DNA from: a virus
Length of the DNA stretch: 64,000 nt
Reading direction: 5' to 3' (one strand)
IMG/VR virus record: IMGVR_UViG_3300025674_000015
This document shows, piece after piece, positions 1 to 12,878 of the stretch (within the stretch, counting starts at the first letter, position 1; each line of letters starts with the position of its first letter). The position numbers and the translations under genes were made by a program. Below the pieces are notes generated by a model, which searched no databases, was not told where the DNA came from, and was given only the letters and a program-made list of their open reading frames with translations.

Positions 1-1
1 A

Positions 2-199
2 GACGGTCAGCTTTGGTTCGAGGAGAACTATCTCCACGGCATGAACCACGGAGCGAATCGAGGGTGGCATAGAAACGGTCAACTTCAGTACGAGATCGGC
101 TATCTCCACGGCGTGTCACACGGAGTGAACCGAAGATGGCATAAAAACGGCCAGCTTATATTGGATGAAGAATGGTTCTACGGAAATAAGATCAGATAA
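2..199 (+). CDS. MORN-variant repeat protein (YwqK-like), 5'-truncated by window edge
   Basis: Not in the ORF track. Manual translation of frame 2: DGQLWFEENYLHGMNHGANRGWHRNGQLQYEIGYLHGVSHGVNRRWHKNGQLILDEEWFYGNKIR*, with repeated W-H-x-NGQL...Y-x-x-G-x-x-HG units typical of MORN_2 repeats. Confidence 0.75.
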   Translation, partial: DGQLWFEENYLHGMNHGANRGWHRNGQLQYEIGYLHGVSHGVNRRWHKNGQLILDEEWFYGNKIR

Positions 200-236
200 C
201 CATTTCAACAACTTACAGAATAATCGAAAAAAGATC

Positions 237-266
237 TTGACTGATCCTGCTAGATCGTGCAATAAT
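237..266 (+). promoter_or_regulatory. Class I early promoter (TTGACT-18-AATAAT, extended -10 TG)
   Basis: TTGACT 237-242, TGc-AATAAT 261-266; GATC at 233, 243, 253, 267; near-identical copies at 938 and 3542; IHF-like TTTCAACAACTTA at 203-215. Confidence 0.75.
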
Positions 267-307
267 GATCTCACATTGGCAGAAACACATTTCACGGAGA
301 AAACAAA

Positions 308-691
308 ATGGAATTGGTAGAACACGTCAAAGAATTGCTTCCCACATGTGAAGAGGGGGCATACGGCGATCTGGAAGTGGTCGCATCCTGTCTTCAGGGT
401 CTTCTCATTGCGGAAAACGCGGAGTTGGCAGACACCCATCTGGAGAGAATCTTCGATGCGATCAAAGAAGATCGGATCGTTGAAGATCACTGGGTGGAGG
501 TGTGGCTAGAGAACAGAGAGCCAGAAAGACGCGAGCTTCCTGCTATCGTCGCCTTCGCAAGCTGGCTGCACACATGGGATCTGATCGAAGATGAGGAGTG
601 GTATCACCACTTCGACAAATGGTGCGATGAGGAGTTTGGTCAGTGCTATGATGGCGCACTGTTCGAGTACGACAAGGAGTTGGGAGCATGA
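308..691 (+). CDS. hypothetical acidic early protein
   Basis: ORF with GGAG RBS downstream of a promoter; D/E-rich; no recognised motif. Confidence 0.75.
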   Translation: MELVEHVKELLPTCEEGAYGDLEVVASCLQGLLIAENAELADTHLERIFDAIKEDRIVEDHWVEVWLENREPERRELPAIVAFASWLHTWDLIEDEEWYHHFDKWCDEEFGQCYDGALFEYDKELGA

Positions 692-924
692 AAAAGCTGA
701 ACGCATTCATGGAGGAATGGGGCGATCTCGTCTTTGAATACGGGATCAAATACAGTGACGAAGACTTTCCGTTGGATGATCGCTTTGAGCCAATGGCGCG
801 AGCGATCGAAAGACAAGGCGTGTGGTGGCACATGCCCAAAGGTATTCAAAACTATGTGGTCATGTCCGACAGGGCAATGATGATCATGGAAAAAGCCTTT
901 CAAAATCTGGCACTTACAGAATAA
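688..924 (+). CDS. hypothetical protein
   Basis: ATGA overlap with the upstream gene, GGAG RBS. Confidence 0.7.
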   Translation: MKKLNAFMEEWGDLVFEYGIKYSDEDFPLDDRFEPMARAIERQGVWWHMPKGIQNYVVMSDRAMMIMEKAFQNLALTE

Positions 925-937
925 TCGAAAAAAGATC

Positions 938-967
938 TTGACTGATCTCACCAGATCGTGCAATAAT
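938..967 (+). promoter_or_regulatory. Class I early promoter
   Basis: TTGACT 938-943, TGc-AATAAT 962-967; GATC at 934, 944, 954; about 55 bp nearly identical to 211-270. Confidence 0.75.
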
Positions 968-1005
968 GATTGTCGTTGGTGAGAACAAACACAGAGGAGG
1001 CTGCT

Positions 1006-1917
1006 ATGCCTAGCATGACTTGGAAGTCGGAATTGGAAAAAAGAGTCGCAATCATCGAGGAGTTTCTCCGTTTTCACAATGAAAACAAGGAGTTCAACAA
1101 AGAGGCTTCGTATGGGCTATACAGGTTCCTCAAAGAAGAGGAGGCTGTCTCGGTTCTTCGCGATCTGGCGGCTATCGCACCAGCAGATCACAGGATCAAC
1201 GTTGCGACATACTCGGAGGACGTGTGTCCACCCCTGCACAAACGCTACATGGAGATCGGATATGCAATGCGCAACGCTATTGATCAGGCTTCAGGGAGCC
1301 TTCAAGAGTCTTTGGAAGACTACAAGAAGCTGATCGCGTCGGAGGTGGCATTCAGAGACAAAACACATTCTGAAGAAATGCTCGCCCTCTGGGAGCTTTT
1401 CAAAAGATCAGCCCGTGAAGGCTCCGTCAAACCCGGAGGTGATCAATTCAAGAACATGGGGGCGGAGCCAACAAAGCAGCAGCATGATGAGCTTTTCTAC
1501 TACGATGGCGACAAGGTGTGCCTCAAGTACAACACTTGGGCTAACGACCAGTTTAAAACGAAGTACCGGTGGATGAGGTGTCTTTCGAAGCCAAAATACA
1601 ATCAGGGTCAGACCGTTTATTTCAAGACCAACGCCCCTGTTCGCAAGGGTCGCGGCTACTGGTACAGCAGCATTACTGAAGTAGAAAAAGCCGAGAGAAA
1701 GCTGGCAGAAGAGAAAGCGGCTGGTACGCTGACAAACAAACCTGCCCTTATCATCGAGGTTCCAGAGATTGTGCCGGAGGGTGATTACCAAGGCAACCGT
1801 CTATACAAGGTGATGCTTCCGGGGTATCCTGCTCCGGTGATCCTGCCAGAGCGGTGCTTCAAGAAGTCCAACAGCGTCAGAGGCAGGAAGAAAAGCAAAA
1901 GCAACCTTCCTGCATAA
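1006..1917 (+). CDS. hypothetical protein, paralogue family A (C-terminal SH3/KOW-like domain)
   Basis: Start reassigned to ATG 1006 behind GGAGG. The C-terminal KPKY..GQTVYF...LYKV..GYPAPVILPERCFKK is shared with 2065-2733 and 2882-3508. Confidence 0.8.
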   Translation: MPSMTWKSELEKRVAIIEEFLRFHNENKEFNKEASYGLYRFLKEEEAVSVLRDLAAIAPADHRINVATYSEDVCPPLHKRYMEIGYAMRNAIDQASGSLQESLEDYKKLIASEVAFRDKTHSEEMLALWELFKRSAREGSVKPGGDQFKNMGAEPTKQQHDELFYYDGDKVCLKYNTWANDQFKTKYRWMRCLSKPKYNQGQTVYFKTNAPVRKGRGYWYSSITEVEKAERKLAEEKAAGTLTNKPALIIEVPEIVPEGDYQGNRLYKVMLPGYPAPVILPERCFKKSNSVRGRKKSKSNLPA

Positions 1918-1933
1918 AAAAAGATTCACCAGC

Positions 1934-2024
1934 AAGATCAAGGGGTTGGAAACCAGAGTGCGTCAACCCTTTGATTTTGTTGAAGATCTTTTTTGTTGAT
2001 CGATCTCACAGGATCGGCTATAAT
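1934..2024 (+). promoter_or_regulatory. Class I early promoter cassette: inverted IHF-like boxes + TTGATC-17-TATAAT
   Basis: AAGATCAAGGGGTTG...CAACCCTTTGATTTT inverted repeat 1934-1978; TTGATC 1996-2001; TATAAT 2019-2024; five GATC in about 80 bp. Confidence 0.8.
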
Positions 2025-2064
2025 GGTCGTCGTTGGTGAGAACACAAACGACAAGGAGAAAAGA

Positions 2065-2733
2065 ATGTTCAGCGCAGAATCTTGTAAAGCGTCGGAAAGA
2101 GACCTACGAAGACTCATTGAGTCAGAGGAGGCTTTCAAAAATAAAACACACTGGGATCAAATAATCCCCCTGTGGGATCTTTTCCGTAGATCCGCACGGG
2201 AGGGTTCGATCGTACCCAGAGGCGGCTTTGCAGCCCCCAACCTCTTCGAGAACATGGGGGCGGAGCCAACAAAAGAGCAGTATGATAGGCTTTTTTACTG
2301 TGATGGAGGGCGGCTTTTCCTCCAGTATAACTCCTGCGCCACCGACTCATTCACCGACAGGTACGGGTGGATGAAGCAGCTTTCAAAGCCAAAATACAAA
2401 CAGGGGCAGACGATCTACTTCAAGGCAAACGCCCCTGTTCGCAAGGGTAAGCGCGGTATCCTCCAGAAGTTGTCGCGCTGGGGCAACTTCAACGAAGTAG
2501 AGAAAGCCGAGGAGAAGCTAGCCAAAGAGAAGGAGGCTGGCACGTTGGCAAACAAGCCCGCCCTTGTCATCGAGGTTCCGGAGATCGTCCCGGAGGGCGG
2601 CTATAAAGGGAACCGTCTCTATAAGGTTGAGATTTCGGGGTATCCTGCCCCAGTGATCTTACCAGAGAGGTGCTTCAAGAAGTCTAACGCGGTCAGACGT
2701 AGGAAGAAAAACAAAAGCAACAAACCTTCATAA
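2065..2733 (+). CDS. hypothetical protein, paralogue family A
   Basis: Start reassigned to ATG 2065 behind AAGGAG; close paralogue of 1006-1917 (LW(D/E)LF(R/K)RSAREGS, NMGAEPTK, APVRKG). Confidence 0.8.
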   Translation: MFSAESCKASERDLRRLIESEEAFKNKTHWDQIIPLWDLFRRSAREGSIVPRGGFAAPNLFENMGAEPTKEQYDRLFYCDGGRLFLQYNSCATDSFTDRYGWMKQLSKPKYKQGQTIYFKANAPVRKGKRGILQKLSRWGNFNEVEKAEEKLAKEKEAGTLANKPALVIEVPEIVPEGGYKGNRLYKVEISGYPAPVILPERCFKKSNAVRRRKKNKSNKPS

Positions 2734-2749
2734 AAAAAGATTCACCAGC

Positions 2750-2840
2750 AAGATCAGGGGGTTGGAAACCAGAATACATCAACCCCTTGATTTTGTTGAA
2801 GATCTTTTTTGTTGATCGATCCTGCCAGATCGGCTATAAT
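2750..2840 (+). promoter_or_regulatory. Class I early promoter cassette
   Basis: Inverted repeat 2750-2794; TTGATC 2812-2817, 17-bp spacer, TATAAT 2835-2840; near-copy of 1915-2030. Confidence 0.8.
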
Positions 2841-2881
2841 GGTCGGCGTAGGTCAGAAACACAAACGACGAGGAGGAAAGA

Positions 2882-3508
2882 ATGAGCGTGAAGCAGAAGA
2901 TCAGAGAGATGAAGGATCGCGGTGGCTACAAGGCTCTCACCGAATGGGAGCAGCGTTTCTGTGATTCTGTTCTTTCCTCCAAGTATGACTCCCTGACCTA
3001 TCGGCAGGAGCCGTATTTCGAGAGAATCATGAAGAAAACCTCCCCAGAGCGTATGAATGGTCTCGCTCACTGGCAGAGGAGCGGCGGCTACACTGAAGAA
3101 AGAAAGGCGATCGCCCAGATCGTCGCCCCTTACTACCTGCGAGGCAAGAAGTACTTCTATGACCTCGCCAAGCAAGCCCTCGAAGGGAAAGAGCTTTCCT
3201 TCGGGCAATACAAGGCTATGTGCGAGAACAAATACGCTCGCGCTATTGTCGAGGCTCACAGAGCCAAACCCAAATACAAAGAAGGCGATCAAGTCTTCGT
3301 CACCACAAACGTAAAGGGGGATTCCTCTACACAAACGAGGAAATACTTCAGCAAAATCAGAGGTTTGCGAGGAACGCCTCTTTTTATTCTCGAAGTCAAC
3401 GCGGAGACACCCATGTCCCCCGCGAAGGGCGCGAAGCTATATAGAGTGCTTCCGATCGGATCAGAGCCTGTTCTGATTGAGGAGCGAAACCTCAAAAAAC
3501 GCAAGTAA
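2882..3508 (+). CDS. hypothetical protein, distant member of paralogue family A
   Basis: GGAGG RBS; C-terminal KPKYKEGDQVFV...GAKLYRVLPIGSEPVLIEERNLKK aligns with family A. Confidence 0.8.
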   Translation: MSVKQKIREMKDRGGYKALTEWEQRFCDSVLSSKYDSLTYRQEPYFERIMKKTSPERMNGLAHWQRSGGYTEERKAIAQIVAPYYLRGKKYFYDLAKQALEGKELSFGQYKAMCENKYARAIVEAHRAKPKYKEGDQVFVTTNVKGDSSTQTRKYFSKIRGLRGTPLFILEVNAETPMSPAKGAKLYRVLPIGSEPVLIEERNLKKRK

Positions 3509-3541
3509 ACCAAGAGCTTACAAAATAGTCAAAAAAAGTTC

Positions 3542-3571
3542 TTGACTGATCCTTCGAGATCGTGCAATAAT
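3542..3571 (+). promoter_or_regulatory. Class I early promoter
   Basis: TTGACT 3542-3547, GATC at 3548 and 3558, TGc-AATAAT 3566-3571. Confidence 0.75.
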
Positions 3572-3640
3572 GTTTGCACATCGTCGGGAGAGAGATTGTC
3601 TCCTCCCATTTCTTTCAAGCCATACTTTAGGAGATCTATC

Positions 3641-4690
3641 ATGGCTATCGACTTCAAAACCTTTAATTCCGTCGTTCCCTTCGTTGTTTCTGACCTCAAG
3701 CCCGTCCTGATCCGTGGTAGGCACGGGGTCGGTAAGTCCGAGACCGTCTACCAGATCGCAGAAAAGATCGGTCTGCCCGTCGTGGAGCGTCGTGCTTCTC
3801 AAATGACGGAGGGCGATCTGATCGGTCTGCCCGTCGTGGATGGGGAAGCTACGTCGTGGAACCCTCCCGACTGGTTCAAGACTGCTTGTTCGGAGCCTGT
3901 CGTCTTGTTCCTCGATGAGATCGACAGGGCAACGCTCGAAGTCCGTCAGGGCATCTTCGAGTTGACCGACTCGCGCAAGCTCAACGGTCACGCTCTCCAC
4001 GAGCAGACCGTCATATTTGGAGCCATCAACGGCGGGGAGCATGGCTCCCAGTACCAAGTCGGCGAGTTTGACCCTGCCGAATTGGATCGCTGGACGGTCT
4101 TCGATGTTGAGCCTTCCGTCGAGGATTGGCTCACATGGGCAGCGGATCACGTTGACCAGAAGGTCTGGGACTTCGTGAACCAGAACCGCCAACACCTCGA
4201 ACACAAGGAAGATTTTGAACCAAACAAAGTCTATCCTTCTCGCAGGTCTTGGAAGCGTTTGTCCGACTGTCTGGTCAAAGGAGACCTCTTGAACGAGGCT
4301 TCGCCTGTTCTGTTTCAGTTGGCTTGCGCCTACGTCGGGTTTGAAGCTGGCGTGGCTCTCAACGACTTCATCGACCAGTACAAAAGCGTCGTGACCATCG
4401 AGCAGTTGCTCGACAAGGGCGATGTGAAGGCTACCAAAGACTTCAGCATCAACGACCACTGCGCGATGATCGAGAAGATCGACGCTGCAAAGGTGTTTGA
4501 CTCCATCCTTCCTGCGGGGAGGTTGAAGAACCTCGCCAAATACTTTGTCACGCTTCCCTCCGAGGTGGCGGTCAAGTTGTGGGCGCAGATGGGTTCGTCC
4601 GGTCGTCCGGTGGAGAACAGCACTAACTTCCACAAGGAAGCCGGTGTCTCCGAGGCTTTCGTCAAAATGTACGCTTCTCAAAACAAATAA
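3641..4690 (+). CDS. MoxR-like AAA+ ATPase
   Basis: Walker A GRHGVGKS, Walker B LFLDEIDR, GDLIGLP, DPAELDRW, PSRRSW; start reassigned to ATG 3641 behind AGGAG. Confidence 0.9.
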   Translation: MAIDFKTFNSVVPFVVSDLKPVLIRGRHGVGKSETVYQIAEKIGLPVVERRASQMTEGDLIGLPVVDGEATSWNPPDWFKTACSEPVVLFLDEIDRATLEVRQGIFELTDSRKLNGHALHEQTVIFGAINGGEHGSQYQVGEFDPAELDRWTVFDVEPSVEDWLTWAADHVDQKVWDFVNQNRQHLEHKEDFEPNKVYPSRRSWKRLSDCLVKGDLLNEASPVLFQLACAYVGFEAGVALNDFIDQYKSVVTIEQLLDKGDVKATKDFSINDHCAMIEKIDAAKVFDSILPAGRLKNLAKYFVTLPSEVAVKLWAQMGSSGRPVENSTNFHKEAGVSEAFVKMYASQNK

Positions 4691-4702
4691 TCCTTTTTCC
4701 GC

Positions 4703-4732
4703 TTGACAAACGATCGGGGTTTTTGCTATAAT
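4703..4732 (+). promoter_or_regulatory. sigma70-type promoter TTGACA-18-TATAAT, extended -10
   Basis: Perfect consensus hexamers with TG at -15/-14; GATC in the spacer. Confidence 0.8.
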
Positions 4733-4776
4733 GTGTGGACATTGGCAAAACCCCTTTCGTTTCTTGGAGGATCGCT

Positions 4777-5940
4777 ATGTTTGATCTCAATGATCACACC
4801 GCCCGTGTTTTGGTTGGAGAGCCGTTCTTTGCTGCCCTGTCCCGCAGGGTGGAGAAGAGAGTCAACAAGGACATCCCGACGGCTGGCGTTCGTGTCAACG
4901 AGCGCGGGTTCTACGAGATGGTCTACAACCCCGACTTCTTCGAGTCTCTCACAGACCGAGAGATCGGCGGTGTCCTCAAACACGAGTTCTACCACCTGAT
5001 CTTTCGGCACTGCGAGGAGAGACTCCCCGAAGGGGGCATGTCGAAGATTTGGAACATTGCCACCGATCTGGCTATCAACAGCCACCTGATCGGTGAACTA
5101 CCGGAGAATGGCTGCATTCCCGGTCAGGGGCATTTTAAGGACTATCCTGTCGGCCTGTCTTCCGAGCAGTATCTCAAGATGCTGCAAGATGATCCACGCT
5201 CCCAGTCCAGTGGTGGCGGGGAAGATGGAGAAGAGGGAGACGGTCTTCCCGACAACATGGACGATCACTCCGGCTGGGGTGGCGACAAGGACGGCGAAGA
5301 CAAGAAGGAACAAGCCAAGCAGAGGCTCAAGGAAGCCCTTAAAGGGGCTGCTGAAGAGGCTGCGAAGCGTGACTGGGGGTCTGTGTCCAATTCCGTGCGG
5401 GAGACCGTTATGGAGGCTCTCAAGAGCCGTCTGGACTGGCGCAAGGTTCTCCGCTATTTTGTGAAGTGTTCGCAGAACGCTCACAAGAAAAGCACGATCA
5501 AAAGGATCAACAAGCGGTTTCCCTACATCCACGCCGGACGTAGAGCAGACCGTGTTGCCAACGTGGCGATCTCGATTGATCAGTCTGGATCGGTGTCTGA
5601 AGAGATGCTAGCCGCGTTCTACGCGGAGTTGGACAAGCTGTCCACACTGGCAACGTTCACTGTGATCCCCTTCGACACGAGGGTGGAAGAAGAACACGTC
5701 TTCGTCTGGAAGAAGGGAATGACCCACAAGAAGGAGCGTTACCTCCACGGCGGGACTTGTTTCGACGCTCCCACCGCGTTTGTGAACGATCGTAACTTCG
5801 ACGGTCACATCATCCTGACGGACATGGAGGCTCCCAAGCCACGGCGTTCCAAGTGTCAGAGAATGTGGCTCACAACCGAAGACTGCAAAGGCAGAGTGTA
5901 CTGGTCAACCCACGAGAGAATCGTCGCTATCGACGATTGA
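4777..5940 (+). CDS. metallopeptidase-like + VWA domain protein (DUF2201-type), partner of the MoxR ATPase
   Basis: HEFYH motif, WNIATDLAIN, DDHSGW linker, MIDAS DQSGS, GGT, ILTD; start ATG 4777 behind GGAGG; adjacent to the AAA+ gene. Confidence 0.88.
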   Translation: MFDLNDHTARVLVGEPFFAALSRRVEKRVNKDIPTAGVRVNERGFYEMVYNPDFFESLTDREIGGVLKHEFYHLIFRHCEERLPEGGMSKIWNIATDLAINSHLIGELPENGCIPGQGHFKDYPVGLSSEQYLKMLQDDPRSQSSGGGEDGEEGDGLPDNMDDHSGWGGDKDGEDKKEQAKQRLKEALKGAAEEAAKRDWGSVSNSVRETVMEALKSRLDWRKVLRYFVKCSQNAHKKSTIKRINKRFPYIHAGRRADRVANVAISIDQSGSVSEEMLAAFYAELDKLSTLATFTVIPFDTRVEEEHVFVWKKGMTHKKERYLHGGTCFDAPTAFVNDRNFDGHIILTDMEAPKPRRSKCQRMWLTTEDCKGRVYWSTHERIVAIDD

Positions 5941-5954
5941 GAGGAAAGAAGAGA

Positions 5955-6383
5955 ATGTATCAACCCCACGCCTTCGACGAGAGAGTAGCAGAAGGCTTCG
6001 CAAACTACGAGAAAGAGGAGAGAATGATGACAGGTGTATCCATTTCCAGCGGCGCATTCCGCGCCTATATGGAGCAGAACTACCTCAAAGAGCTAGACAA
6101 GGAGGCTCTTTTGGAGATGCTGGCAGAGGTTCTTCCCCTCGAAGACCTCGTGCTTCTAGCTAGGGAAGTGTGGGATCTTCCCTTCGCGATGGAGTCAGAT
6201 GGCTCCGTTGCCATCGAGGATGTGGAGCAATTGCTAGTCCCAGACTACAACGATCCCCTCGACGACGAGGATTGCGGCTGTGATGAATGGCAAGAGGACG
6301 AGGAATACCTCGAATACACGGGGATGGGAGAAGACCTCGAAACCTCTTACCGCGAGGACTTCGAGAGGCTGGTCGGACAATGA
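5955..6383 (+). CDS. hypothetical acidic protein
   Basis: Start reassigned to ATG 5955 behind GAGG; very acidic C-terminal half. Confidence 0.7.
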   Translation: MYQPHAFDERVAEGFANYEKEERMMTGVSISSGAFRAYMEQNYLKELDKEALLEMLAEVLPLEDLVLLAREVWDLPFAMESDGSVAIEDVEQLLVPDYNDPLDDEDCGCDEWQEDEEYLEYTGMGEDLETSYREDFERLVGQ

Positions 6384-6613
6384 GAGATTTGACACAAGAG
6401 ACATACGAGAAATACCGTGATATTTCGGTGTGTTCCCCCCAAATGTTCGTGACTGCGACATGGACTGACCTTCTCGCTCTTGCCGAGGGCGACAGGCTTG
6501 AAGAGCTTTTGGAGGAAGGGTTGATCCCCAACCTCCCACCAGAGGCTTGGCAGGGGATTGTGGAAGACCTAAAGCCCCACTACGAGCTAGCTTTGTGGAA
6601 GGTATCGCCATGA
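6380..6613 (+). CDS. hypothetical protein
   Basis: ATGA overlap with the previous gene (MRDLTQETYE...). Confidence 0.65.
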   Translation: MRDLTQETYEKYRDISVCSPQMFVTATWTDLLALAEGDRLEELLEEGLIPNLPPEAWQGIVEDLKPHYELALWKVSP

Positions 6614-6705
6614 GAGACAGGGAATGGTGGGGGGATTTCCTTTTATTTATCGGGATGTTGCTGGTCTTTCTCTGGCTCAATTCCCTTTTCTTTTTGTCCA
6701 GATAA
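6610..6705 (+). CDS. small membrane peptide (31 aa)
   Basis: Below the ORF-track cutoff: MRDREWWGDFLLFIGMLLVFLWLNSLFFLSR*; ATGA overlap; one hydrophobic helix. Confidence 0.5.
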   Translation: MRDREWWGDFLLFIGMLLVFLWLNSLFFLSR

Positions 6706-6714
6706 AAAAGTTTC

Positions 6715-6810
6715 TTCAATGAGATCAGGGGTTTAGGTTGTAAAGAAAGCCAAGCCCTTGGTTTCATTGAGGATCTTTTTCTTGATCGATCCTGATCATT
6801 TTGCTATAAT
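6715..6810 (+). promoter_or_regulatory. Class I early promoter cassette
   Basis: Imperfect inverted repeat CTTCAATGAGATCAGGGG...CCCTTGGTTTCATTGAGG; TTGATC 6782-6787, 17 bp, TGcTATAAT 6805-6810. Confidence 0.8.
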
Positions 6811-6850
6811 GGTCGGCGTTGGTGAGGGAACAAACAACAAGGAGGACGAC

Positions 6851-7270
6851 ATGTCCAAGCTAGACAAGAAGATCAGATCGCTTTTGGTTTCCTACGGAGA
6901 GCTTGCCCTCCAGCAGCGACAGGTGCAACAATCACCTACGACCCGCCGATGGGGGCGGGAGGAGAAGAGGGAGGCTGTCCAAGACCTCCATCGGAGAAAG
7001 GAAGACTTGATCGCCCAAGCCGTTGGGATCTTTGGCGATTTAGCCGAAGAAACCGGAAAAACCAAAGAGGCAGCCGCGAGGCTGCTTGGCGACCGCGTTC
7101 GCATCTACGCCGAAGGCGATGAGCGCGGCAAGCTGGGCAGGATCGTCCAGCGAGGGACTGGCCTGTTCTACACGGGTTGCAATTTGGAAAGGTGGGACGC
7201 TGTTGCCGTCCGTATCGACGGCGAGAAGGAGCCTATCTGGATGTCCACCCGCGAGGTGGGCAAGATATAG
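6851..7270 (+). CDS. hypothetical protein
   Basis: Start reassigned to ATG 6851 behind AAGGAGG; C-terminus is SH3-like (GDRVRI...GRIV...AVRIDG). Confidence 0.75.
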   Translation: MSKLDKKIRSLLVSYGELALQQRQVQQSPTTRRWGREEKREAVQDLHRRKEDLIAQAVGIFGDLAEETGKTKEAAARLLGDRVRIYAEGDERGKLGRIVQRGTGLFYTGCNLERWDAVAVRIDGEKEPIWMSTREVGKI

Positions 7271-7287
7271 GAGAACGTTTTTATTTT

Positions 7288-7385
7288 CTTCAATGAGATC
7301 AGGGGGTTGAGAGAGCATCGGCCTCAACTCCTTGGTTTCGTTGAGGATCTTTTTTGTTGATCGATCCTGATCTTTTTGCTATAAT
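7288..7385 (+). promoter_or_regulatory. Class I early promoter cassette
   Basis: Inverted repeat 7288-7346; TTGATC 7357-7362, 17 bp, TGcTATAAT 7380-7385; followed by a GGGCAATGAAGCCC leader hairpin. Confidence 0.8.
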
Positions 7386-7432
7386 AGAGGACACAAGGGC
7401 AATGAAGCCCCCAAGAAGGTGGAGACAACGCC

Positions 7433-8311
7433 ATGTCTAGCAAGATCACAAACATCATCATCGCCGACATCATCGACCTGATCGAAGAAAGCAAGGAGTT
7501 GCCGTGGGAAAAGCCGTGGAATGCGGCAGCATCGTCCCCGCAGAACATGGTATGGCAGAAGCCATACCGTGGGATCAACCGCTTCATGTGTTCGCTCACG
7601 GCGACCGTGAGGGGCTACAACAGCCCCTTCTGGTTGACCTTCGGGCAGGTCAAGAAGGCCGGAGGCAAGATCAAGAAAGGAGAAAAGGCGACAAAGATCG
7701 TCAAATGGGGCTGCATTGAGGTCAAGGACAAGCAAACCGGAGAGGTGAAAGATAAAATCTGGAAGCCTTTCAAGTACTTCAAGATTTTCAACGTCGATCA
7801 GTGCGAGGGGATCGAGGTTCCAGAACAGGAGATCGAAACCCTCGAATGGAAGCCGCTTGAGCGGTGCGACATGATCATCGAAGGATACGCAGACATCCCG
7901 CAGATCGGGGAAGGAGGAGACAGGGCATGTTACATCCCCGCGATGGATGTGATCAAAATGCCCAACAAAACGACCTTCAAGAGCGTGGAGGGGTTCTATG
8001 CGACCCTATTCCACGAGCTTGCACACTCAACTGGTGCGAAGCAAAGGCTCAACAGGGTCGGCGTGACCGATCCGATCCAGTTTGGATCGCACCAATACTC
8101 GAAGGAAGAATTGATCGCGGAGTTTTGCTCCGCCCTGCTCTGCGCTCACGCAGGAATCGAGCGCGAAACCCGAAAGAACTCGGCTGCTTACGTCAAAGGA
8201 TGGTGTAAGTACCTGAGAGAAAAGGGGAAAGAGATCTTCTCTGCTGCTTCACAGGCAGAGAAGGCTTTTGATTACATTGTTTCTCAACAAAAACAGGAGG
8301 TTACAGAATGA
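7433..8311 (+). CDS. ardC: ArdC-family antirestriction / ssDNA-binding protein (DUF1738 + zincin-like domain)
   Basis: PWEKPW, YRGIN, WLTFGQ, KKGEK, FNVDQ, ACYIP..DVIKMP, FYATLFHELAHSTG..RLNR, YSKEELIAE: the full ArdC motif set. Confidence 0.92.
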   Translation: MSSKITNIIIADIIDLIEESKELPWEKPWNAAASSPQNMVWQKPYRGINRFMCSLTATVRGYNSPFWLTFGQVKKAGGKIKKGEKATKIVKWGCIEVKDKQTGEVKDKIWKPFKYFKIFNVDQCEGIEVPEQEIETLEWKPLERCDMIIEGYADIPQIGEGGDRACYIPAMDVIKMPNKTTFKSVEGFYATLFHELAHSTGAKQRLNRVGVTDPIQFGSHQYSKEELIAEFCSALLCAHAGIERETRKNSAAYVKGWCKYLREKGKEIFSAASQAEKAFDYIVSQQKQEVTE

Positions 8312-8493
8312 GAAAAGCAATTTTGATTATGGTGGTCTTCATGACCCTCGTGTCCATCGGATGCAGCACAAACAAAGGAGGCGAAACCGTCGCTGGTGAC
8401 GCAGCCAGCGAAAAGGTGGCGGAGCCACGAGAAGAGAAAAAAGAAGAAAAACAGGAGGTTGACGGAGGTGTAGCAGACCAAGCCAAAGACTGA
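8308..8493 (+). CDS. small lipoprotein
   Basis: MRK + hydrophobic stretch + lipobox-like VSIGC; charged mature part; GGAGG RBS. Confidence 0.7.
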   Translation: MRKAILIMVVFMTLVSIGCSTNKGGETVAGDAASEKVAEPREEKKEEKQEVDGGVADQAKD

Positions 8494-8509
8494 AAGTTTT
8501 TTCCTTAGC

Positions 8510-8599
8510 AAGATCAGGGGGTTGAGTCAACCAAAGGCTCATCCCCTTGATTTTGTTCAGGATCTTTTATTTGATCGATCCTGATCTTTTTGCTATAAT
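8510..8599 (+). promoter_or_regulatory. Class I early promoter cassette
   Basis: AAGATCAGGGGGTTGAG...CTCATCCCCTTGATTTT inverted repeat; TTGATC 8571-8576, 17 bp, TGcTATAAT 8594-8599. Confidence 0.8.
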
Positions 8600-8623
8600 A
8601 GGTGCAGAAAGGAGGGCAGAGCA

Positions 8624-8827
8624 ATGAAAAAGCGACCAAAGGTTGGAGATTGGGTTTATTCTCTTTACCACGAGGCGGAGGGTCTTTTGGTGGGATTCAT
8701 GGATCTCCCAGACGACTGGGGTTGCACCTGTAGGGTGCTTCTCGTGGGGAGAGACACCCCCAGCCCTGCCCACCTGCATTCCCTCCGGATAATCCGGAGG
8801 GCAGAGGATAACAAAAATGAACTTTAA
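8624..8827 (+). CDS. small hypothetical protein (SH3/KOW-like)
   Basis: GGAGG RBS; KVGDWV...GLLVG pattern also present in the next ORF. Confidence 0.65.
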   Translation: MKKRPKVGDWVYSLYHEAEGLLVGFMDLPDDWGCTCRVLLVGRDTPSPAHLHSLRIIRRAEDNKNEL

Positions 8828-9083
8828 CAAAGGAGATTGGGTTGCAACCCACCGGAAGGAGAAAGGGATCGTGGTTGGCTTCCAAACTACATTCTTCTCA
8901 GAGTGTGGAGCCTCAGAGCCTCACAAACTATTGCGACCCCCTCGACCCCCTCGACCCGATCGCAAGCCCACGATCGAATGTGCGTGGGTTCTTTTAATAG
9001 GAGCCCCCAGCCCTTACTTGTTTGATCTTCGCTTTCTCGAAAGAATCGAGGATAACAAAAAAGAAAAATCCATTCACATGTAG
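8817..9083 (+). CDS. small hypothetical protein, paralogue of 8624-8827
   Basis: KGDWV..GIVVG..VLLIG..P; both proteins end near EDNK. Confidence 0.6.
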   Translation: MNFNKGDWVATHRKEKGIVVGFQTTFFSECGASEPHKLLRPPRPPRPDRKPTIECAWVLLIGAPSPYLFDLRFLERIEDNKKEKSIHM

Positions 9084-9453
9084 GTATATGTGGGGGAGGG
9101 GAGATGCCACAGAAAAATCCATTAGAAAAATCCATCCTTGCAGCTTTAAGTTAGTGAAATAGGGCGTAAGGTGGGGGGGTATTTAGCCCAAAAACACAGA
9201 AAAATCAAGAAAAAACGACAAAAATCGTTAAAAAAACAGCTTTTTTTGCAATATATTAGAAAAATCGACATCAGAAAAACCCATAAAAATCCATAAGATA
9301 GGAGAAAAATCCATTTGTGTGACCCCCGTGCGCCCCCGTGTGGGGCTCAGAAAAATCCATTTGCGCCTATCCCCGTGTACAAGGGGCTCAGAAAAATCCA
9401 TTTGCGTTGACACATGTGGGCGCGTGTAGGAGGTTGGCAGAAAAATCCATTTG
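9062..9453. repeat. array of AGAAAAATCCAT(TTG) direct repeats with phased A-tracts
   Basis: Copies at 9062, 9111, 9124, 9303, 9349, 9390, 9439 and degenerate copies at 9258, 9273, 9285; A-tracts start at 9190, 9200, 9210, 9220, 9230. Confidence 0.9.
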
Positions 9454-9491
9454 CAAACAGGCACATGCAGGCGATCAGGCGAAGATCGGCC

Positions 9492-9802
9492 TTTCCCCAA
9501 ACACCGAGAAATAGGGGGTTTGATTTAACCCCCCCCTAAAGGAGACTCGAAAAATGTCCAAAGAAATCAAAGACCTGCAAGCCAAGATCGGAGGCACACA
9601 CCAGCCCACATGTGAGCGTGATCGCCCGCAACCCCCGCCCCTGTGGGCGGCAGCGATTGTCCTGCACCCGCAGCGCAGACAAACCGCGCTCGATTTCACA
9701 CGGGTCATGGCGCACCCACGAGGGAACACGCCAGATCCCCAATTTCCGCAAACCCCGAGAAACACGGGGGTTTGATTTACCCCCCTCCTAAAGGGCACTC
9801 GA
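9492..9802. repeat. ~60-bp imperfect direct repeat (9492-9550 and 9743-9802) with internal GGGGGTTTGATTTA(A)CCCCC hairpin
   Basis: TTTCC(C/G)CAAAC(A/C)CCGAGAAA..GGGGGTTTGATTTA.CCCCC.CCTAAAGG..ACTCGA present twice. Confidence 0.85.
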
Positions 9803-9854
9803 TTTCTTTTTGAGATCAAGGGGTTGGAGATCCCTGGAATCCTTTTCAGAACCG

Positions 9855-9888
9855 TGTGACACGATCTGACACAGGTCGATCGTATAAT
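9855..9888 (+). promoter_or_regulatory. Class II promoter (TGTGACACGATCTGACAC box + GATCG-TATAAT, no canonical -35)
   Basis: Box starts exactly 28 bp before TATAAT here and at 10892, 11478 and 12003. Confidence 0.75.
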
Positions 9889-9943
9889 GTAGCACGAGGG
9901 CAAGAAAGCCCACCAACCACAAACCGATCAAAGGAGATCGCTC

Positions 9944-10216
9944 ATGAAAGTCTTCACCGTCTGGTTCGCTCAGTCCCCCGATCGCACCTTCCGCCTCTTC
10001 GATCGCTCCCCCGAAGGTGCGCCTCTCTGGTTCGTCACTCGCTCCCATGCCGTCGAATGGTGCAGGGACGAGATCTTCGGGGATCTCGATCGTCTTCCTG
10101 TCCCCTATTCCATCGAGATCAGAGAGATCCACGTCGACGATCTGCCCCCTGAATCCCCGATCACCTACGATATTGAGGCAGCATGCGAAGGTTGGCAGGA
10201 ATCCAGTTGGGTCTGA
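9944..10216 (+). CDS. hypothetical protein
   Basis: AAGGAG RBS within the conserved leader. Confidence 0.75.
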   Translation: MKVFTVWFAQSPDRTFRLFDRSPEGAPLWFVTRSHAVEWCRDEIFGDLDRLPVPYSIEIREIHVDDLPPESPITYDIEAACEGWQESSWV

Positions 10217-10227
10217 TTCCCCTTCAA

Positions 10228-10289
10228 AATCAACGATTTATAAAATAGTTGAAAAAAATTGTCAGAAAGAATCACCCCGATCGTATAAT
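10228..10289 (+). promoter_or_regulatory. hybrid promoter with exact IHF consensus upstream
   Basis: AATCAACGATTTA 10228-10240 (WATCAANNNNTTR), TTGTCA 10259-10264 (19-bp spacer), GATCG-TATAAT 10284-10289, followed by the class II leader hairpin. Confidence 0.65.
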
Positions 10290-10334
10290 AGAGGACACAG
10301 GGCAACAACGCCCCACCAATTCAGGAGAGATCAC

Positions 10335-10625
10335 ATGCGAAAGATCACGCAAGAAGCCTTCACCGCTTGGAAGTCCGGGAAATCATTCAAGAAATCCAAC
10401 ACCCGCGTCGACGCTGACGGATCGGTCTTCCTCCACGGGAACCAGATCGTGCGCGTCACCCCTGACGCTGTCCTCGTCTCTGACGGGGGTTTTGGCTGGT
10501 CAATGACCACCCGCGAGCGTTTGAGCCCGTGGGTCACGTTCTCCCAGAAAAACTGGGAGCCTCTGATGGATGGTTCCCCTTACAAATCAGGCACTTGGGT
10601 GGCTCTCACCCGCAAGACTTGGTAG
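10335..10625 (+). CDS. hypothetical phage protein
   Basis: Start reassigned to ATG 10335 behind AGGAG (MRKITQEA...SNTRV...VFLHGNQI...TTRERL). Confidence 0.75.
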   Translation: MRKITQEAFTAWKSGKSFKKSNTRVDADGSVFLHGNQIVRVTPDAVLVSDGGFGWSMTTRERLSPWVTFSQKNWEPLMDGSPYKSGTWVALTRKTW

Positions 10626-10680
10626 CCCCAACCCCTAACCCCTTGATTTCCTTTCACTTTTTCCTTCAGGAGAAAAACCT

Positions 10681-10884
10681 ATGCATTTTCAATACTTTGT
10701 CGCCGCTGTCTGTCAGACCCTCGAAAGCATGGATCACCCGATCGAGAATCTTCTTTCCCGCAGGGAGGCAGAAATGCTCCTCTGCGATTGCTTCGAAGCT
10801 GGCTGGACACCAGACCAAACGATCGACAAGGTTCTCTCTGATGCCCGTGGGGACTGGCTTTTCAACGATTTCTGGAGGGATTGA
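10681..10884 (+). CDS. hypothetical protein
   Basis: AGGAG RBS after a pyrimidine tract. Confidence 0.65.
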   Translation: MHFQYFVAAVCQTLESMDHPIENLLSRREAEMLLCDCFEAGWTPDQTIDKVLSDARGDWLFNDFWRD

Positions 10885-10888
10885 TCCA

Positions 10889-10925
10889 ACCTGTGTCACG
10901 ATCTGACACAGGTCTGACGTATAAT
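10889..10925 (+). promoter_or_regulatory. Class II promoter; box forms a perfect palindrome ACCTGTGTCA-cgatc-TGACACAGGT
   Basis: 10-bp inverted repeat 10889-10913; TATAAT 10920-10925. Confidence 0.75.
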
Positions 10926-10974
10926 AGGGGACACAGGGCAACACCGCCCCAAAAACCGATCCAAGGAGATCACT

Positions 10975-11298
10975 ATGCAATACCGCGAATGGCGAAAAAA
11001 CAAAGCAAAATCAGACACTTCCTTCGTTTCGGCGTGGAGAGATTCCAGGGGTCTCCCGAAGCTCTCTGATGCCGAGAACAGCGAGCGTTTCGACTCCTAC
11101 CTCTGGTTGATGCGCGAGCTAGACAAGATCGTGCTTCGCAAGATGCGCGCCGAAGAGCGCGAGGAGCGCGGCCTTTCCGGCTCCCTCTCCTTTGAGGCCG
11201 AGCGTCACGGGGAAAGCGTCGATTTCGACGACCTGAGTCTCGACTATGCCGAAGAGGTCGACGTTGACGGCCTCACAGACGAAGACGTTGCTTTCTGA
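10975..11298 (+). CDS. hypothetical protein with acidic tail
   Basis: AAGGAG RBS in the conserved leader. Confidence 0.75.
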   Translation: MQYREWRKNKAKSDTSFVSAWRDSRGLPKLSDAENSERFDSYLWLMRELDKIVLRKMRAEEREERGLSGSLSFEAERHGESVDFDDLSLDYAEEVDVDGLTDEDVAF

Positions 11299-11306
11299 CC
11301 CTCACC

Positions 11307-11330
11307 ACCGCCCTTTTGGGCGGTTCCCTT
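11307..11330 (+). terminator. GC hairpin, possible terminator or processing stem
   Basis: ACCGCCC-TTTT-GGGCGGT right after a stop codon; weak U-tract. Confidence 0.45.
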
Positions 11331-11376
11331 CCCAACCCTTTGATTTTCTTCCTTTTTTCCTCTGGAGAGGTGCTAA

Positions 11377-11475
11377 ATGTCTGAAACAATTAAGCTTTTC
11401 GCCGGTGTCCTGATTGCTTCCCTGTTCTACTTCGCTCCCGCCCTGATTTTCTTTTTTCTCCAGCTTCCCTCGTAA
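11377..11475 (+). CDS. small membrane peptide (32 aa)
   Basis: Below the ORF-track cutoff: MSETIKLFAGVLIASLFYFAPALIFFFLQLPS*; GGAGAGG RBS. Confidence 0.55.
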   Translation: MSETIKLFAGVLIASLFYFAPALIFFFLQLPS

Positions 11476-11477
11476 CG

Positions 11478-11511
11478 TGTGACACGATCTGACGCAATTG
11501 GATCGTATAAT
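11478..11511 (+). promoter_or_regulatory. Class II promoter
   Basis: TGTGACACGATCTGACGC-aattg-GATCG-TATAAT. Confidence 0.75.
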
Positions 11512-11562
11512 AGAGGGCAAGGGGGCAAGGAAGCCCCAAACAACGATCGAAGGAGATCAAAC

Positions 11563-11994
11563 ATGCGAATCGAAACCTACGGCCAGAAAAACCTTTTCCT
11601 CTTTGAAATCGCAGACATGGAGCGCAAGATCGACGCACACGTCGCAATGCGCGACCACGTCGAGGCTTCCGGCAAGCTGTCCCCCGAAATGGACGCTCTC
11701 TTCGCCTCCATCCTCACGCCCCTCACAGACGCGGTTGCAGCCCGCAAGGCTACTCTGGACGCGCTCACAACGGCGGATCACCTCCGCCTAGCGGAGCAGG
11801 AAGAGGCGCGCATGCGCTTCGCGGAGACCTCCACAGAGGAGGAGGAGGCGATCAAGGCGGAGGTTTCTTTCTTCCGCTGCAAGCTCCGCCGGGAAGGGGG
11901 TTTCCGCATCCCTCTGGCCTCCAGCCCCGAGGCTGCGGGGGCTATGATGGAGCGCATGGGCGAGGCGTATGACCTGCGCCGTCTGCGCAATTAA
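11563..11994 (+). CDS. hypothetical helical protein
   Basis: Start reassigned to ATG 11563 behind AAGGAG. Confidence 0.75.
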   Translation: MRIETYGQKNLFLFEIADMERKIDAHVAMRDHVEASGKLSPEMDALFASILTPLTDAVAARKATLDALTTADHLRLAEQEEARMRFAETSTEEEEAIKAEVSFFRCKLRREGGFRIPLASSPEAAGAMMERMGEAYDLRRLRN

Positions 11995-12002
11995 TGCGGA
12001 CA

Positions 12003-12036
12003 TGTGACGCGATCTGACACTGTTGGATCGTATAAT
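12003..12036 (+). promoter_or_regulatory. Class II promoter
   Basis: TGTGACGCGATCTGACAC-tgttg-GATCG-TATAAT. Confidence 0.75.
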
Positions 12037-12085
12037 AGGGGAGAAGGGGCAAGGAAGCCCTCAACAACGATCGAAGGAGATCAAA

Positions 12086-12496
12086 ATGGCAAACGCTAAC
12101 TACCTGAAATATACCGTGATTCCCGCTCTCGCTGAATCCCTGCGCGAAGCAGACGAGCTTCAAGGTATCCTCCGCACCTTCCCCGACCTCAGCCCCCTCA
12201 ACAAGGGGCTGATCGAGGGTCGTTTGATCACCGTCAACGAGGCGGTGGAAGACTACTCTGCCGAAATGCGCGCTGAATACGAGGTTTCGGAGCAGTTGAA
12301 CGCTGTGCGCGAATACCGCGCCGGCTTCGGGTCTTACGTCCACCCCACGATCGAAAGGTTCGTGGATCAGGAGATTGCAGCCCTCGAAGCTGCTCTTGCC
12401 CTCGAAGAAGCCCGTGGTGACGGGGAACGCCTCACCTTCGCTAGCTTCGAGGATTTCGAGGCTTTCGTGCGGTCTACCTTCAACGTGGTTGAATGA
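12086..12496 (+). CDS. hypothetical acidic protein
   Basis: Start reassigned to ATG 12086 behind AAGGAG. Confidence 0.75.
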   Translation: MANANYLKYTVIPALAESLREADELQGILRTFPDLSPLNKGLIEGRLITVNEAVEDYSAEMRAEYEVSEQLNAVREYRAGFGSYVHPTIERFVDQEIAALEAALALEEARGDGERLTFASFEDFEAFVRSTFNVVE

Positions 12497-12511
12497 CCGC
12501 AAACCCCGGAG

Positions 12512-12536
12512 CAGCCGCCCTTCGGGGCGGTTGTTT
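12512..12536 (+). terminator. hairpin with TTCG loop, likely terminator
   Basis: CAGCCGCCC-TTCG-GGGCGGTTG-TTT just after a stop codon. Confidence 0.55.
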
Positions 12537-12580
12537 CCCCAACCCCTTCTTTTTATTCCCTTTTTTCAGGAGCAACAATC

Positions 12581-12826
12581 ATGGCTATCTCCCTGTCTTC
12601 ATTGGCAAATCTCTTCTTCTTCGTTTCCCTCGCTGCCGTGGGTTTCTACGGCGTGATCATGTTCGTTCTGTGCGATCAGTATATCCGAGCGATCATGGGC
12701 TCCCCAGAGGTCGACGGCTGGGCGGTGATCGAAGCCACCCCTTCGATCCTCCTCTTGTTCTCGGTGTCTCTGACCGGTTCGATCGTTTGGTTCGCTGTCG
12801 GCGGGTTTTGCCAGACCTTCGCTTGA
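12581..12826 (+). CDS. small membrane protein (two hydrophobic helices)
   Basis: AGGAG RBS; two long hydrophobic segments. Confidence 0.65.
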   Translation: MAISLSSLANLFFFVSLAAVGFYGVIMFVLCDQYIRAIMGSPEVDGWAVIEATPSILLLFSVSLTGSIVWFAVGGFCQTFA

Positions 12827-12878
12827 CCGTCAACCCTAACCCTTTGTTTTCTTTCACTTTTTTTTCAGGAGTTTCAAA

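Follow-up and report, generated by a model that had tools for sequence, protein, structure and literature searches.

GATC-saturated early genes and promoters in an uncultured estuarine phage

Phages are known for avoiding GATC. Promoters that are sensitive to Dam methylation include IS10 pIN, the dnaA promoter and examples from P1 and Mu, and in Alphaproteobacteria the CcrM/GcrA system makes sigma-70 promoters methylation-dependent through the motif GANTC. In the first-step-transfer region of T5, restriction-site avoidance is limited to the first-expressed phage DNA. In cyanobacteria HIP1 (GCGATCGC), a palindrome containing GATC, is hugely over-represented for reasons that are unknown. Many phages carry orphan Dam methylases, for which we know of no agreed function beyond restriction escape. 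The E. coli dnaA promoter contains eight GATCs, is bound by SeqA when hemimethylated and is silenced after replication (PMC10073500). SeqA requires two GATCs on one helical face (PMC5145175).

The 64-kb stretch of DNA analysed here (the window) comes from an uncultured, estuarine phage with a 13-kb early-gene block that is saturated with GATC. Literature searches turned up no earlier case of a phage early region saturated with GATC.

1–13230, plus strand: GC-rich (about 51%) early, anti-defence gene block; 25 genes, all on the plus strand

Genes for an ArdC-like anti-restriction protein, MoxR AAA and VWA/DUF2201 are part of the block, and nearly all of its genes specify small lineage-specific proteins without known function. 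It holds 184 GATCs (one per 72 bp), with 21–32 in each 2 kb where about 7.5 are expected, against about 4.6 per kb in 13231–64000. The window as a whole contains 417, and dinucleotide-preserving shuffles give 253 ± 14. Codon usage can be rejected as the cause of the excess, which persists in synonymous-codon shuffles of the coding DNA (123 observed versus 76 ± 6; z 7.6–8.5); in a codon-preserving comparison GATC is the top outlier among all 256 tetramers. Chimeric joining of a 51%-GC zone to a 37%-GC zone during assembly can be rejected as well: the independent contigs G001 and G002 show the same junction, with the block again in an internal position. Like HIP1, the motif is a GATC-containing palindrome in large excess. 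It is not HIP1, because there is a single copy of GCGATCGC in 13.2 kb and the GATC flanks are near background, with no preference that would indicate a longer motif.

Nine promoters, which we call class I, lie in the first part of the block.

237–266, plus strand: class I promoter, TTGACT, 18-nt spacer, TG-n-AATAAT; GATC at 233, 243 and 253 (10-bp steps), also at 267
938–967, plus strand: class I promoter, TTGACT type; GATC at 934, 944 and 954
1996–2024, plus strand: class I promoter, TTGATC, 17-nt spacer, TATAAT; GATC at 1998 (within the -35), 2002 and 2012
2812–2840, plus strand: class I promoter, TTGATC type; GATC at 2814, 2818 and 2828; the G001 orthologue has TTGACC-GATC
3542–3571, plus strand: class I promoter, TTGACT type; GATC at 3548 and 3558; the upstream position is GTTC, as in the wider family
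4703–4732, plus strand: class I promoter, full consensus TTGACA, 18-nt spacer, TG-n-TATAAT; a single GATC at 4712
6782–6810, plus strand: class I promoter, TTGATC type; GATC at 6784, 6788 and 6794
7357–7385, plus strand: class I promoter, TTGATC type; GATC at 7359, 7363 and 7369
8571–8599, plus strand: class I promoter, TTGATC type; GATC at 8573, 8577 and 8583

These are the best nine sigma-70 matches of a promoter scan of 1–14000, and all are on the coding strand, 30–80 nt upstream of a ribosome-binding site and ATG. Their hexamers match 10–12 of 12 consensus positions, the spacers are 17–18 nt long and six of the nine have the TG of an extended -10. We consider all nine to be real sigma-70-type promoters, mostly extended -10, from which host RNA polymerase would transcribe the early genes. 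Each carries one to four GATCs between -40 and -3, in five cases inside the -35 itself. Every one of them, like the Dam-sensitive promoters, has GATC in or beside the -35, the spacer or the -10. Five class I promoters directly follow strong terminators, and a second promoter class is found further downstream.

1918–1995, plus strand: long terminator hairpin and U-run directly preceding a promoter; two GATCs, in the 5' arm and at the 3' stem base
2734–2811, 6706–6781, 7287–7356 and 8502–8570: equivalent terminator hairpins, from RNA folding
9855–12036, plus strand: class II promoters, TGACAC-GATC-TGACAC ... GATC-g-TATAAT; -10 ending at 9888, 10925, 11511 and 12036
-10 ending at 10287, plus strand: partial class II promoter copy
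9926/9936, 10958/10968, 11545/11555 and 12069/12079, plus strand: class II leaders, GATC-n-AAGGA-GATC around the ribosome-binding site

The hairpins fold at -34 to -39 kcal/mol (z -6.3 to -7.6 versus shuffles). The promoters are paralogous cassettes with signs of exchange among copies. Much of the class I description had been put forward in an earlier note on this DNA, and it held up: all nine coordinates, the steps of the TTGACT promoters (233/243/253, 934/944/954 and 3548/3558), the -35 GATC of the five TTGATC promoters with a second GATC behind it and a third 6 or 10 bp further on, and the five GATCs of the cassette 1934–2024 (1936, 1985, 1998, 2002 and 2012). Known Dam-sensitive promoters differ in scale: here 14 promoters have 2–4 GATCs per promoter, and an entire 13-kb module is saturated. 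Here, too, the candidate writer is phage-encoded, and an effect on expression would be a prediction from the sequence.

Density varies strongly between sequence classes. Promoter cores (-45 to +1) contain 38 GATCs in 702 bp where 2.5 are expected (54 per kb, 15.4-fold), followed by block leaders (20 per kb, 6.9-fold), block coding DNA near promoters (11.6 per kb, 3.0-fold) and other non-coding block DNA (about 5.1 per kb, 1.4-fold). The sites therefore concentrate on expression signals and their spread is uneven. Because other non-coding block DNA is enriched just 1.4-fold, a uniform mutational bias can be rejected. The enrichment beyond chance that the earlier note described is thus real, and the composition-corrected comparison of promoters with coding DNA (15.4-fold versus 3.0-fold) does not refute its reading of the promoters. 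Promoters are the densest and best-conserved GATC carriers of the module, but the enrichment is not promoter-specific. It includes coding DNA throughout the early block, and for this a switch at the promoters would not be a sufficient explanation.

The promoter sites are also held in place. For one promoter type, the window, G001 and 22 additional metagenome contigs supplied 27 distinct variants for comparison. Of these, 26 retain the GATC that follows the -35 and all 27 retain the one before GTGCAATAAT, while at least 10 different sequences occupy the six positions between these two spacer GATCs. Within the TTGACT class, entropy is zero in the GATC columns and averages 0.70 bits over the six intervening bases, just as one would expect from the proposal that the GATCs are fixed and the spacers vary. 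In these alignments promoter GATCs are more constrained than the spacer around them. The paired sites lie one helical turn apart, at about -29 to -26 and -20 to -17. A third GATC is facultative and lies either immediately upstream of the -35 hexamer or within it. Orthologous promoters alternate between TTGACC/T-GATC and TTGATC-GATC, so that a GATC inside the -35 arises repeatedly, at the cost of one consensus base. At the site immediately before the -35, and also in class II spacers, some copies read GTTC or GGTC and others GATC.

Ten bp is the modal distance between adjacent GATCs in the block (n=16). Promoters and leaders share exact 10-bp steps, which places their clustered GATCs on one helical face, as in the SeqA clusters at E. 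coli oriC and over the dnaA promoter. Coding GATC pairs, unlike SeqA clusters, are clustered without helical phasing (20 on-face versus 21 off-face). Also unlike the SeqA system, a relative of this phage has no SeqA homologue, and the host possibly lacks SeqA.

This relative, G001, has a 157-kb genome that is 93% identical and carries the same block at about 29–45.3 kb. At this identity GATC is kept at 52 of 57 non-coding and 106 of 113 coding sites, compared with 75% and 80% for other tetramers. At 77–85% identity the numbers are 59 of 81 and 94 of 143, compared with 56% and 48%. Promoter GATCs are better conserved than coding GATCs. The latter turn over, yet the density ratio stays between 2.3 and 5.2 in all 24 lineage contigs. 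Upstream of the block, at 2.8–27.4 kb, the roughly 12 best consensus sigma-70 promoters of G001 contain no spacer GATC at all. About 80 related phages share this promoter architecture in a form free of GATC, AAAAAGTTC-TTGACA-N17/18-TGnGATAAT. In a second GATC-rich lineage (L038/L039, local ratio 3.0) comparable promoter cassettes are absent, and a looser promoter pattern searched across IMG/VR gave mainly single chance matches.

A Dam-like methyltransferase, which the earlier note suggested looking for, is absent from the window but present in G001 (PF02086, E 1e-41; TIGR00571, 188 bits). The protein has a DPPY motif, and the solved proteins most similar to it are M.DpnIIA and E. coli Dam, both GATC methylases. 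From these nearest solved enzymes we infer that it is specific for GATC. Its gene has a GATC-free promoter with a 12/12 consensus match and is apparently expressed early. No second N6/N4 methylase was found in G001, and an ORF that overlaps the start of dam matches nothing in Pfam or NCBIfam. As to readers, G001 contains no homologues of SeqA, MutH, DpnI, DpnII or GcrA. The GcrA profile PF07750 finds no match in G001 and the SeqA profile PF03925 none in G001 or G002, although a SeqA of the host is still possible. The CcrM/GcrA system would be similar in that an m6A site embedded in sigma-70 promoters marks a regulatory class. It differs in its motif, GANTC rather than GATC (the GANTC ratio in the block is 0.6), and in the GcrA that G001 lacks. 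Dam presence is not a tracker of GATC content across relatives: D12 methylases occur in 6 of 49, unrelated to GATC content.

These patterns make it very probable that GATC serves the phage to mark or control the genes it expresses first. How it might do so can be explained in several ways. One could argue that GATC is a block-wide density signal in a contest of defence and counter-defence, with no part in transcription initiation. The early module would meet host systems that read GATC, most lineages would purge the site there, and a Dam-protected lineage would load the module with methylated copies that act as a shield, a decoy or a mark of self; promoter spacers would carry the site merely through tolerance. 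The ArdC-like gene fits this, as does the turnover of coding GATCs at held density. In about 80 relatives the homologous neighbourhood has GATC ratios of 0.06–1.8, and several have 4-kb windows at or beside the shared AAA gene with no GATC. Other palindromes (GGCC, AGCT, CTAG, CGCG and TTAA) are purged in the family to an extreme and lineage-specific degree, and in the block GGCC (8 versus 36 expected) and GTAC (14 versus 28 expected) are scarce. T5 is similar in that the strongest palindrome selection falls on the early module; the module here also has anti-restriction genes. The sign for GATC is reversed in this lineage, however, with 3–15-fold enrichment, and stepwise DNA entry is not known for the T4-related phages studied here. 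A density signal does not explain why unconstrained non-coding block DNA, at 1.4-fold, counts as not enriched, why 445 bp (9028–9472) are without any GATC, or why promoter GATCs are fixed in position, 10 bp apart and conserved above coding ones. We also know of no defence system that is countered by extra methylated sites. On balance we consider this explanation somewhat unlikely.

Alternatively, GATC-N6-GATC could be a palindromic operator for a dimeric phage regulator, for example an autorepressor, and Dam would be irrelevant. Two self-complementary half-sites, 10 bp from centre to centre over a promoter spacer, are classic repressor geometry, and the same pair brackets the ribosome-binding site in class II leaders. 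Nearly all block genes encode lineage-specific small proteins, so candidate regulators exist, but neither HTH nor other DNA-binding domains were found in the block proteins (Pfam, PHROGs). A 4-bp half-site with a free spacer offers little information to a specific repressor, and the 125 coding GATCs, the third GATC in or before the -35 and the GATC-GATC tandems would be left unexplained, which makes an operator improbable. A signal at the RNA level is more doubtful still, to the point of being very improbable. T4 RegB, which cuts GGAG in early leaders, offers an analogy, and GAUC in early transcripts could be a site for an RNase or an RNA-binding protein; GATC pairs surround the Shine-Dalgarno in four of the strongly enriched leaders. 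The densest and best-conserved sites, however, belong to promoter spacers, which precede the transcription start and follow terminators, and the GATC palindrome fits the methylase of G001. The absence of any function, with cassette duplication and gene conversion acting on top of codon-usage or mutational bias, is largely refuted and, to us, very improbable, hardly more likely than a signal at the RNA level. Exchange between promoter copies speaks for it, and so do the preference for ATC (77% of Ile codons in the block), which fits a GC-richer host, the six tRNAs for AT-rich codons in G001 and the depletion of the near-cognate words GATA, GAAC and GGAC. It does not account for an excess that withstands codon-preserving shuffles, for conservation above background in coding and non-coding DNA, for bases between promoter GATCs that diverged when the GATCs did not, or for the low enrichment of the other non-coding DNA.

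Methylation-gated early transcription is plausible because of the constraint on promoter GATCs, their lineage specificity and the likely writer, the Dam of the relative. Terminator-promoter cassettes would drive the early, anti-defence module, which in this one phage lineage has become filled with the Dam site. N6-methylation of these sites would most likely be the work of a Dam-family methylase of the phage, and the methylated pairs could be read by RNA polymerase itself or by a protein that binds two GATCs on the same face at once. Island promoters would thereby be told apart from sigma-70 promoters in other parts of the genome, which lack GATC. As at the dnaA promoter, replication could be signalled by whether the sites are fully methylated or hemimethylated (PMC10073500). 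Parental and replicated DNA might then be transcribed differently, with early-gene shut-off or a licensing switch as the outcome. That Dam-methylated GATC pairs in early promoters are read at the DNA level is an explanation we favour tentatively, at a little under even chances. The full version, an epigenetic switch run by the phage in which its own Dam marks dedicated early promoters and the module, and replication toggles anti-defence and takeover genes, is unlikely as a whole; if it is true, both the promoter class and this use of orphan phage methylases would be new.

Of the earlier note's interpretation, methylation gating is partly supported and a distinction between parental and replicated DNA is possible. 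A memory of the previous host is unlikely, because an apparently early, phage-borne Dam would write the mark itself. An early-expressed Dam would also shorten any hemimethylated phase. Sigma-70 makes few base-specific contacts in the promoter spacer; the conserved GATCs there may simply sit in the cheapest places for sites.

Selection packs GATC into the first-expressed genes here, and sister lineages strip it from the same module; the tightest constraint falls on phased pairs within host-type promoters. If the sites gate transcription, phage Dam would have a regulatory role and early promoters read through methylation would form a class. If they do not, the module still carries a clear, testable DNA-level signal written over coding sequence.

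Clues to the host are few. Dam homologues share just 26–36% identity and come from scattered MAGs. Cultured relatives give no nucleotide match, and the best protein matches to cultured phages reach 31% (a Flavobacterium phage) and 29% (a Microcystis phage). Metagenomes from estuaries and salt marshes commonly contain this lineage.

GATC is strongly over-represented in this virus, with 417 sites in the window where dinucleotide-preserving shuffles give 253 ± 14. All of the excess falls in the GC-rich left zone (1–13230), where there are 21–32 sites per 2 kb and about 7.5 are expected; the right zone stays close to the expected number. The density in the left zone, set against the expectation from composition, differs between classes of DNA.

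GATC density in the left zone by class of DNA (promoter cores: −45 to +1 of 14 promoters, 702 bp)
Promoter cores: 54 per kb, 15.4 times expectation
5' leaders: 20 per kb, 6.9 times expectation
Terminator hairpins: 17.5 per kb, 4.7 times expectation
Coding DNA: 11.6 per kb, 3.0 times expectation
Remaining non-coding DNA: 5.1 per kb, 1.4 times expectation

The earlier note had claimed that the early promoters are built from GATC sites, and their enrichment is indeed well above that of neighbouring coding DNA (15.4 vs 3.0 times). The coding excess in the block is real as well. Shuffling synonymous codons gene by gene gives 76 ± 6 coding GATCs for the block, which has 123 (z 7.6–8.5), and GATC is the strongest positive outlier among the 256 tetramers, with GGCC the strongest negative (8 vs 36). 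Right-zone genes reach z 1.7 under the same shuffle. We found no flank preference of GATC in the block, and the cyanobacterial repeat HIP1, which contains GATC, was rejected as the enriched word with only one copy there; therefore the selected word is the tetramer itself.

The window represents part of the genome of a large myovirus that has not been cultured. No nucleotide-level match to any cultured phage was found for it, and its baseplate-wedge protein (50693–52492) shares 31% identity with the counterpart in Flavobacterium phage immuto and 29% with the one in Microcystis phage Mel-JY01. The left zone has about 51% GC and every gene on the + strand, and the right zone, from 13495 onward, about 37% GC. 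An assembly artefact is ruled out as the cause of this two-zone structure, because the block recurs as an internal island (about 29–45.3 kb, 47–55% GC, GATC ratio 3.4–4.5) in G001, a 157-kb IMG/VR relative, whose surrounding genome has 34–46% GC and a GATC ratio mostly between 1 and 2 in 3-kb windows. The genes of the left zone form an early, anti-defence module, in which about 20 small proteins without a known family accompany three with family matches:

3641–4690, + strand, MoxR-type AAA ATPase
4777–5940, + strand, DUF2201 metallopeptidase/VWA protein
7433–8311, + strand, ArdC-like protein

Only three genes of the module, those at 2882–3508 and for the AAA and VWA proteins, are common to the wider phage family.

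The nine promoters described in the earlier note, all with correct coordinates, are the nine top-scoring sigma-70 matches in 1–14000. They are real host-type promoters of three types:

237, 938 and 3542, + strand, TTGACT-N18-(TG)nAATAAT promoters (sigma-70 scan)
1996, 2812, 6782, 7357 and 8571, + strand, TTGATC-N17-TATAAT promoters (sigma-70 scan)
4703, + strand, full-consensus TTGACA-N18-(TG)nTATAAT promoter (sigma-70 scan)

Each of the five TTGATC promoters lies directly 3' of a long hairpin (folds of −34 to −39 kcal/mol, z −6.3 to −7.6) and a U-run; hence these units are terminator-promoter cassettes. The cassette at 1934–2024 does hold the five GATCs ascribed to it, but two of them sit in the terminator stem, not in the promoter. 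A second promoter class (9855–12036) has no −35 hexamer. Here TGAC(A/G)C direct repeats surround a GATC, a further GATC lies at −17 to −14, and the ribosome-binding sites are enclosed as GATC-n-AAGGA-GATC.

A promoter-pattern scan of IMG/VR yielded G001 and a 31-kb contig, G002, both 91–93% identical to the block, and 22 more contigs of the lineage (72–100% identical to the window) came from a metagenome scan, all with GATC ratios of 2.3–5.2. Contigs of the lineage such as Ga0099849_1020750, Ga0255751 and Ga0181591 derive from estuarine and salt-marsh samples. GATC is retained above other tetramers in coding and non-coding DNA over both identity ranges compared.

GATC sites kept within the lineage, with the share of other tetramers kept
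93% identity, coding: 106/113 vs 80%
93% identity, non-coding: 52/57 vs 75%
77–85% identity, coding: 94/143 vs 48%
77–85% identity, non-coding: 59/81 vs 56%

Individual coding sites turn over while their density is held; promoter GATCs hold their positions. In a set of 27 distinct variants of the TTGAC[T/C]...GTGCAATAAT promoter, a GATC directly follows the −35 hexamer in 26 and precedes GTGC in all 27, and the six bases between this pair take at least 10 forms, as expected from the claim that GATCs stay fixed while spacer bases vary. The site immediately 5' of the −35 is GATC, GTTC or CCTC. The tightest constraint falls on the same-face GATC pair in the promoter spacer. Orthologues of the CTATAAT class interchange TTGACC-GATC and TTGATC-GATC, and therefore a GATC within the −35 is one C-to-T change away from an ordinary hexamer, from which TTGATC is derived at the price of one consensus base. 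Promoters of the second class likewise switch between GGTC and GATC by a single base; in G001 three copies have GATC in place of GGTC in the spacer.

About 80 more distant relatives, found via the AAA protein (53–68% identity), have early promoters built to the same plan but devoid of GATC: an A-tract and then GTTC-TTGACA-N17/18-TGnGATAAT. GATC ratios of their homologous neighbourhoods are 0.06–1.8, and several have 4-kb windows at or adjoining the AAA gene with zero GATC. Their lineage-specific purging of other palindromes is extreme, with different ones each brought to zero (GGCC, AGCT, CTAG, CGCG, TTAA and AATT among them). In G001 the roughly 12 best consensus sigma-70 promoters at 2.8–27.4 kb, 5' of the island, carry no spacer GATC, and the promoter at 8402 is likewise GATC-free; thus the GATC-bearing promoters are a distinct set, restricted to the island. 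Promoter function apparently does not need GATC, and the GATC overlay is lineage-specific and maintained by selection.

Dam-sensitive promoters, and GATC clusters that are read after replication, are well known. What differs here is that GATC fills a whole phage early module and that phased pairs are part of 14 promoters and of their leaders. Our literature search found no report of an entire phage early module overwritten in this way.

The search for a Dam-like methylase succeeded in G001, in a region beyond the window's reach. This Dam-family gene (PF02086, E 1e-41; TIGR00571, 188 bits; DPPY motif) sits some 20 kb 5' of the island; among enzymes of solved structure, its product is closest to M.DpnIIA and E. 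coli Dam, both GATC methylases. Its two-gene operon stands behind a GATC-free promoter with 12/12 consensus bases, so early expression is probable. At this locus (G001:8463–10114; L021:821–2472), dam and a 221-aa ORF without Pfam or NCBIfam match overlap at the stop codon of the ORF; both are on one predicted transcript from the perfect-consensus promoter, and hence the ORF may encode a partner of the methylase. Homologues of SeqA, MutH, DpnI, DpnII and GcrA were not found in G001, nor was an N6/N4-type methylase. Six of 49 relatives have a D12 methylase, whose presence bears no relation to GATC content.

From the host-type promoters, the selected overlay, the same-face spacer pair and the dam gene in a near-identical relative we infer methylation and a signal at the promoters. 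The GATC sites would be methylated and read there as a DNA-level signal that distinguishes the module from the other promoters at which the phage relies on host polymerase. Since the mark would be halved by replication, its likeliest use would be to tell parental from replicated DNA, which could then be handled differently. The closest known case is the dnaA promoter of E. coli, where SeqA binds eight GATCs in the hemimethylated state and thereby silences transcription (PMC10073500). SeqA needs pairs of GATCs that lie on the same side of the helix (PMC5145175), the same geometry as in the phage promoter spacers. We favour this reading tentatively, at somewhat below an even chance, because coding GATCs are clustered without helical phasing and an early phage Dam would cut hemimethylation short. 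If the mark is written by the phage itself, as the Dam gene in G001 suggests, the earlier note's idea of a memory of the previous host is unlikely to hold.

One could also argue that the density across the block is itself the signal, linked to defence or counter-defence. This is a serious but less probable explanation. The same module is purged of GATC in relatives, but there is no enrichment in free non-coding DNA of the block, and the positions of the promoter sites are fixed. The two half-sites have the geometry classic for repressors, and the sites could form a methylation-independent operator for a dimeric phage regulator; that would leave the coding GATCs unexplained, and we consider it improbable.

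Inheritance plus compositional bias, with no function at all, might be suspected since the promoters are paralogous cassettes. It is largely refuted by the codon shuffles, the conservation at two identity ranges, the density classes and the 27-variant comparison, and is very unlikely. We give slightly less credence still to a GAUC signal in RNA, for although GATC pairs lie on either side of the ribosome-binding site in four leaders, the best sites are 5' of transcription starts.

Other features of the block stand beside these results. A 445-bp non-coding stretch (9028–9472) has zero GATC in a zone averaging one per 72 bp; it contains seven AGAAAAATCCAT repeats and is a candidate origin or packaging site kept without GATC. 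The strong avoidance of GGCC in 1–13230 (8 vs 36 expected) extends likewise to GTAC (14 vs 28); elsewhere in G001 GGCC is near expectation. Three paralogous early genes (1006–1917, 2065–2733 and 2882–3508), each stand behind a separate promoter with GATC; their products have in common a C-terminal domain (KPKYKQG...RLYKV...ER.FKK) that matched no family, and of the three only 2882–3508 has homologues throughout the wider group of phages. A 61-aa early protein (8308–8493) has, as read from its sequence, a lipoprotein-like N-terminal signal, MRKAILIMVVFMTLVSIGCS. The small early protein at 10335–10625 matches Pfam Kyano_Gp96 (E 6e-12), a T4-like cyanophage family, a weak hint to relationships or host. 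Early-block codons are GC-rich (Ile is ATC in 77%, vs ATT in 57% in the late genes at 13495–64000), and G001 (L013, 1829–3074) encodes six tRNAs for AT-rich codons (Ile-UAU, Leu-UAA, Asn, Tyr, Glu and Met). Hence the island may hold early genes fitted to a host of higher GC content, at a stage when the phage tRNAs have yet to be made.
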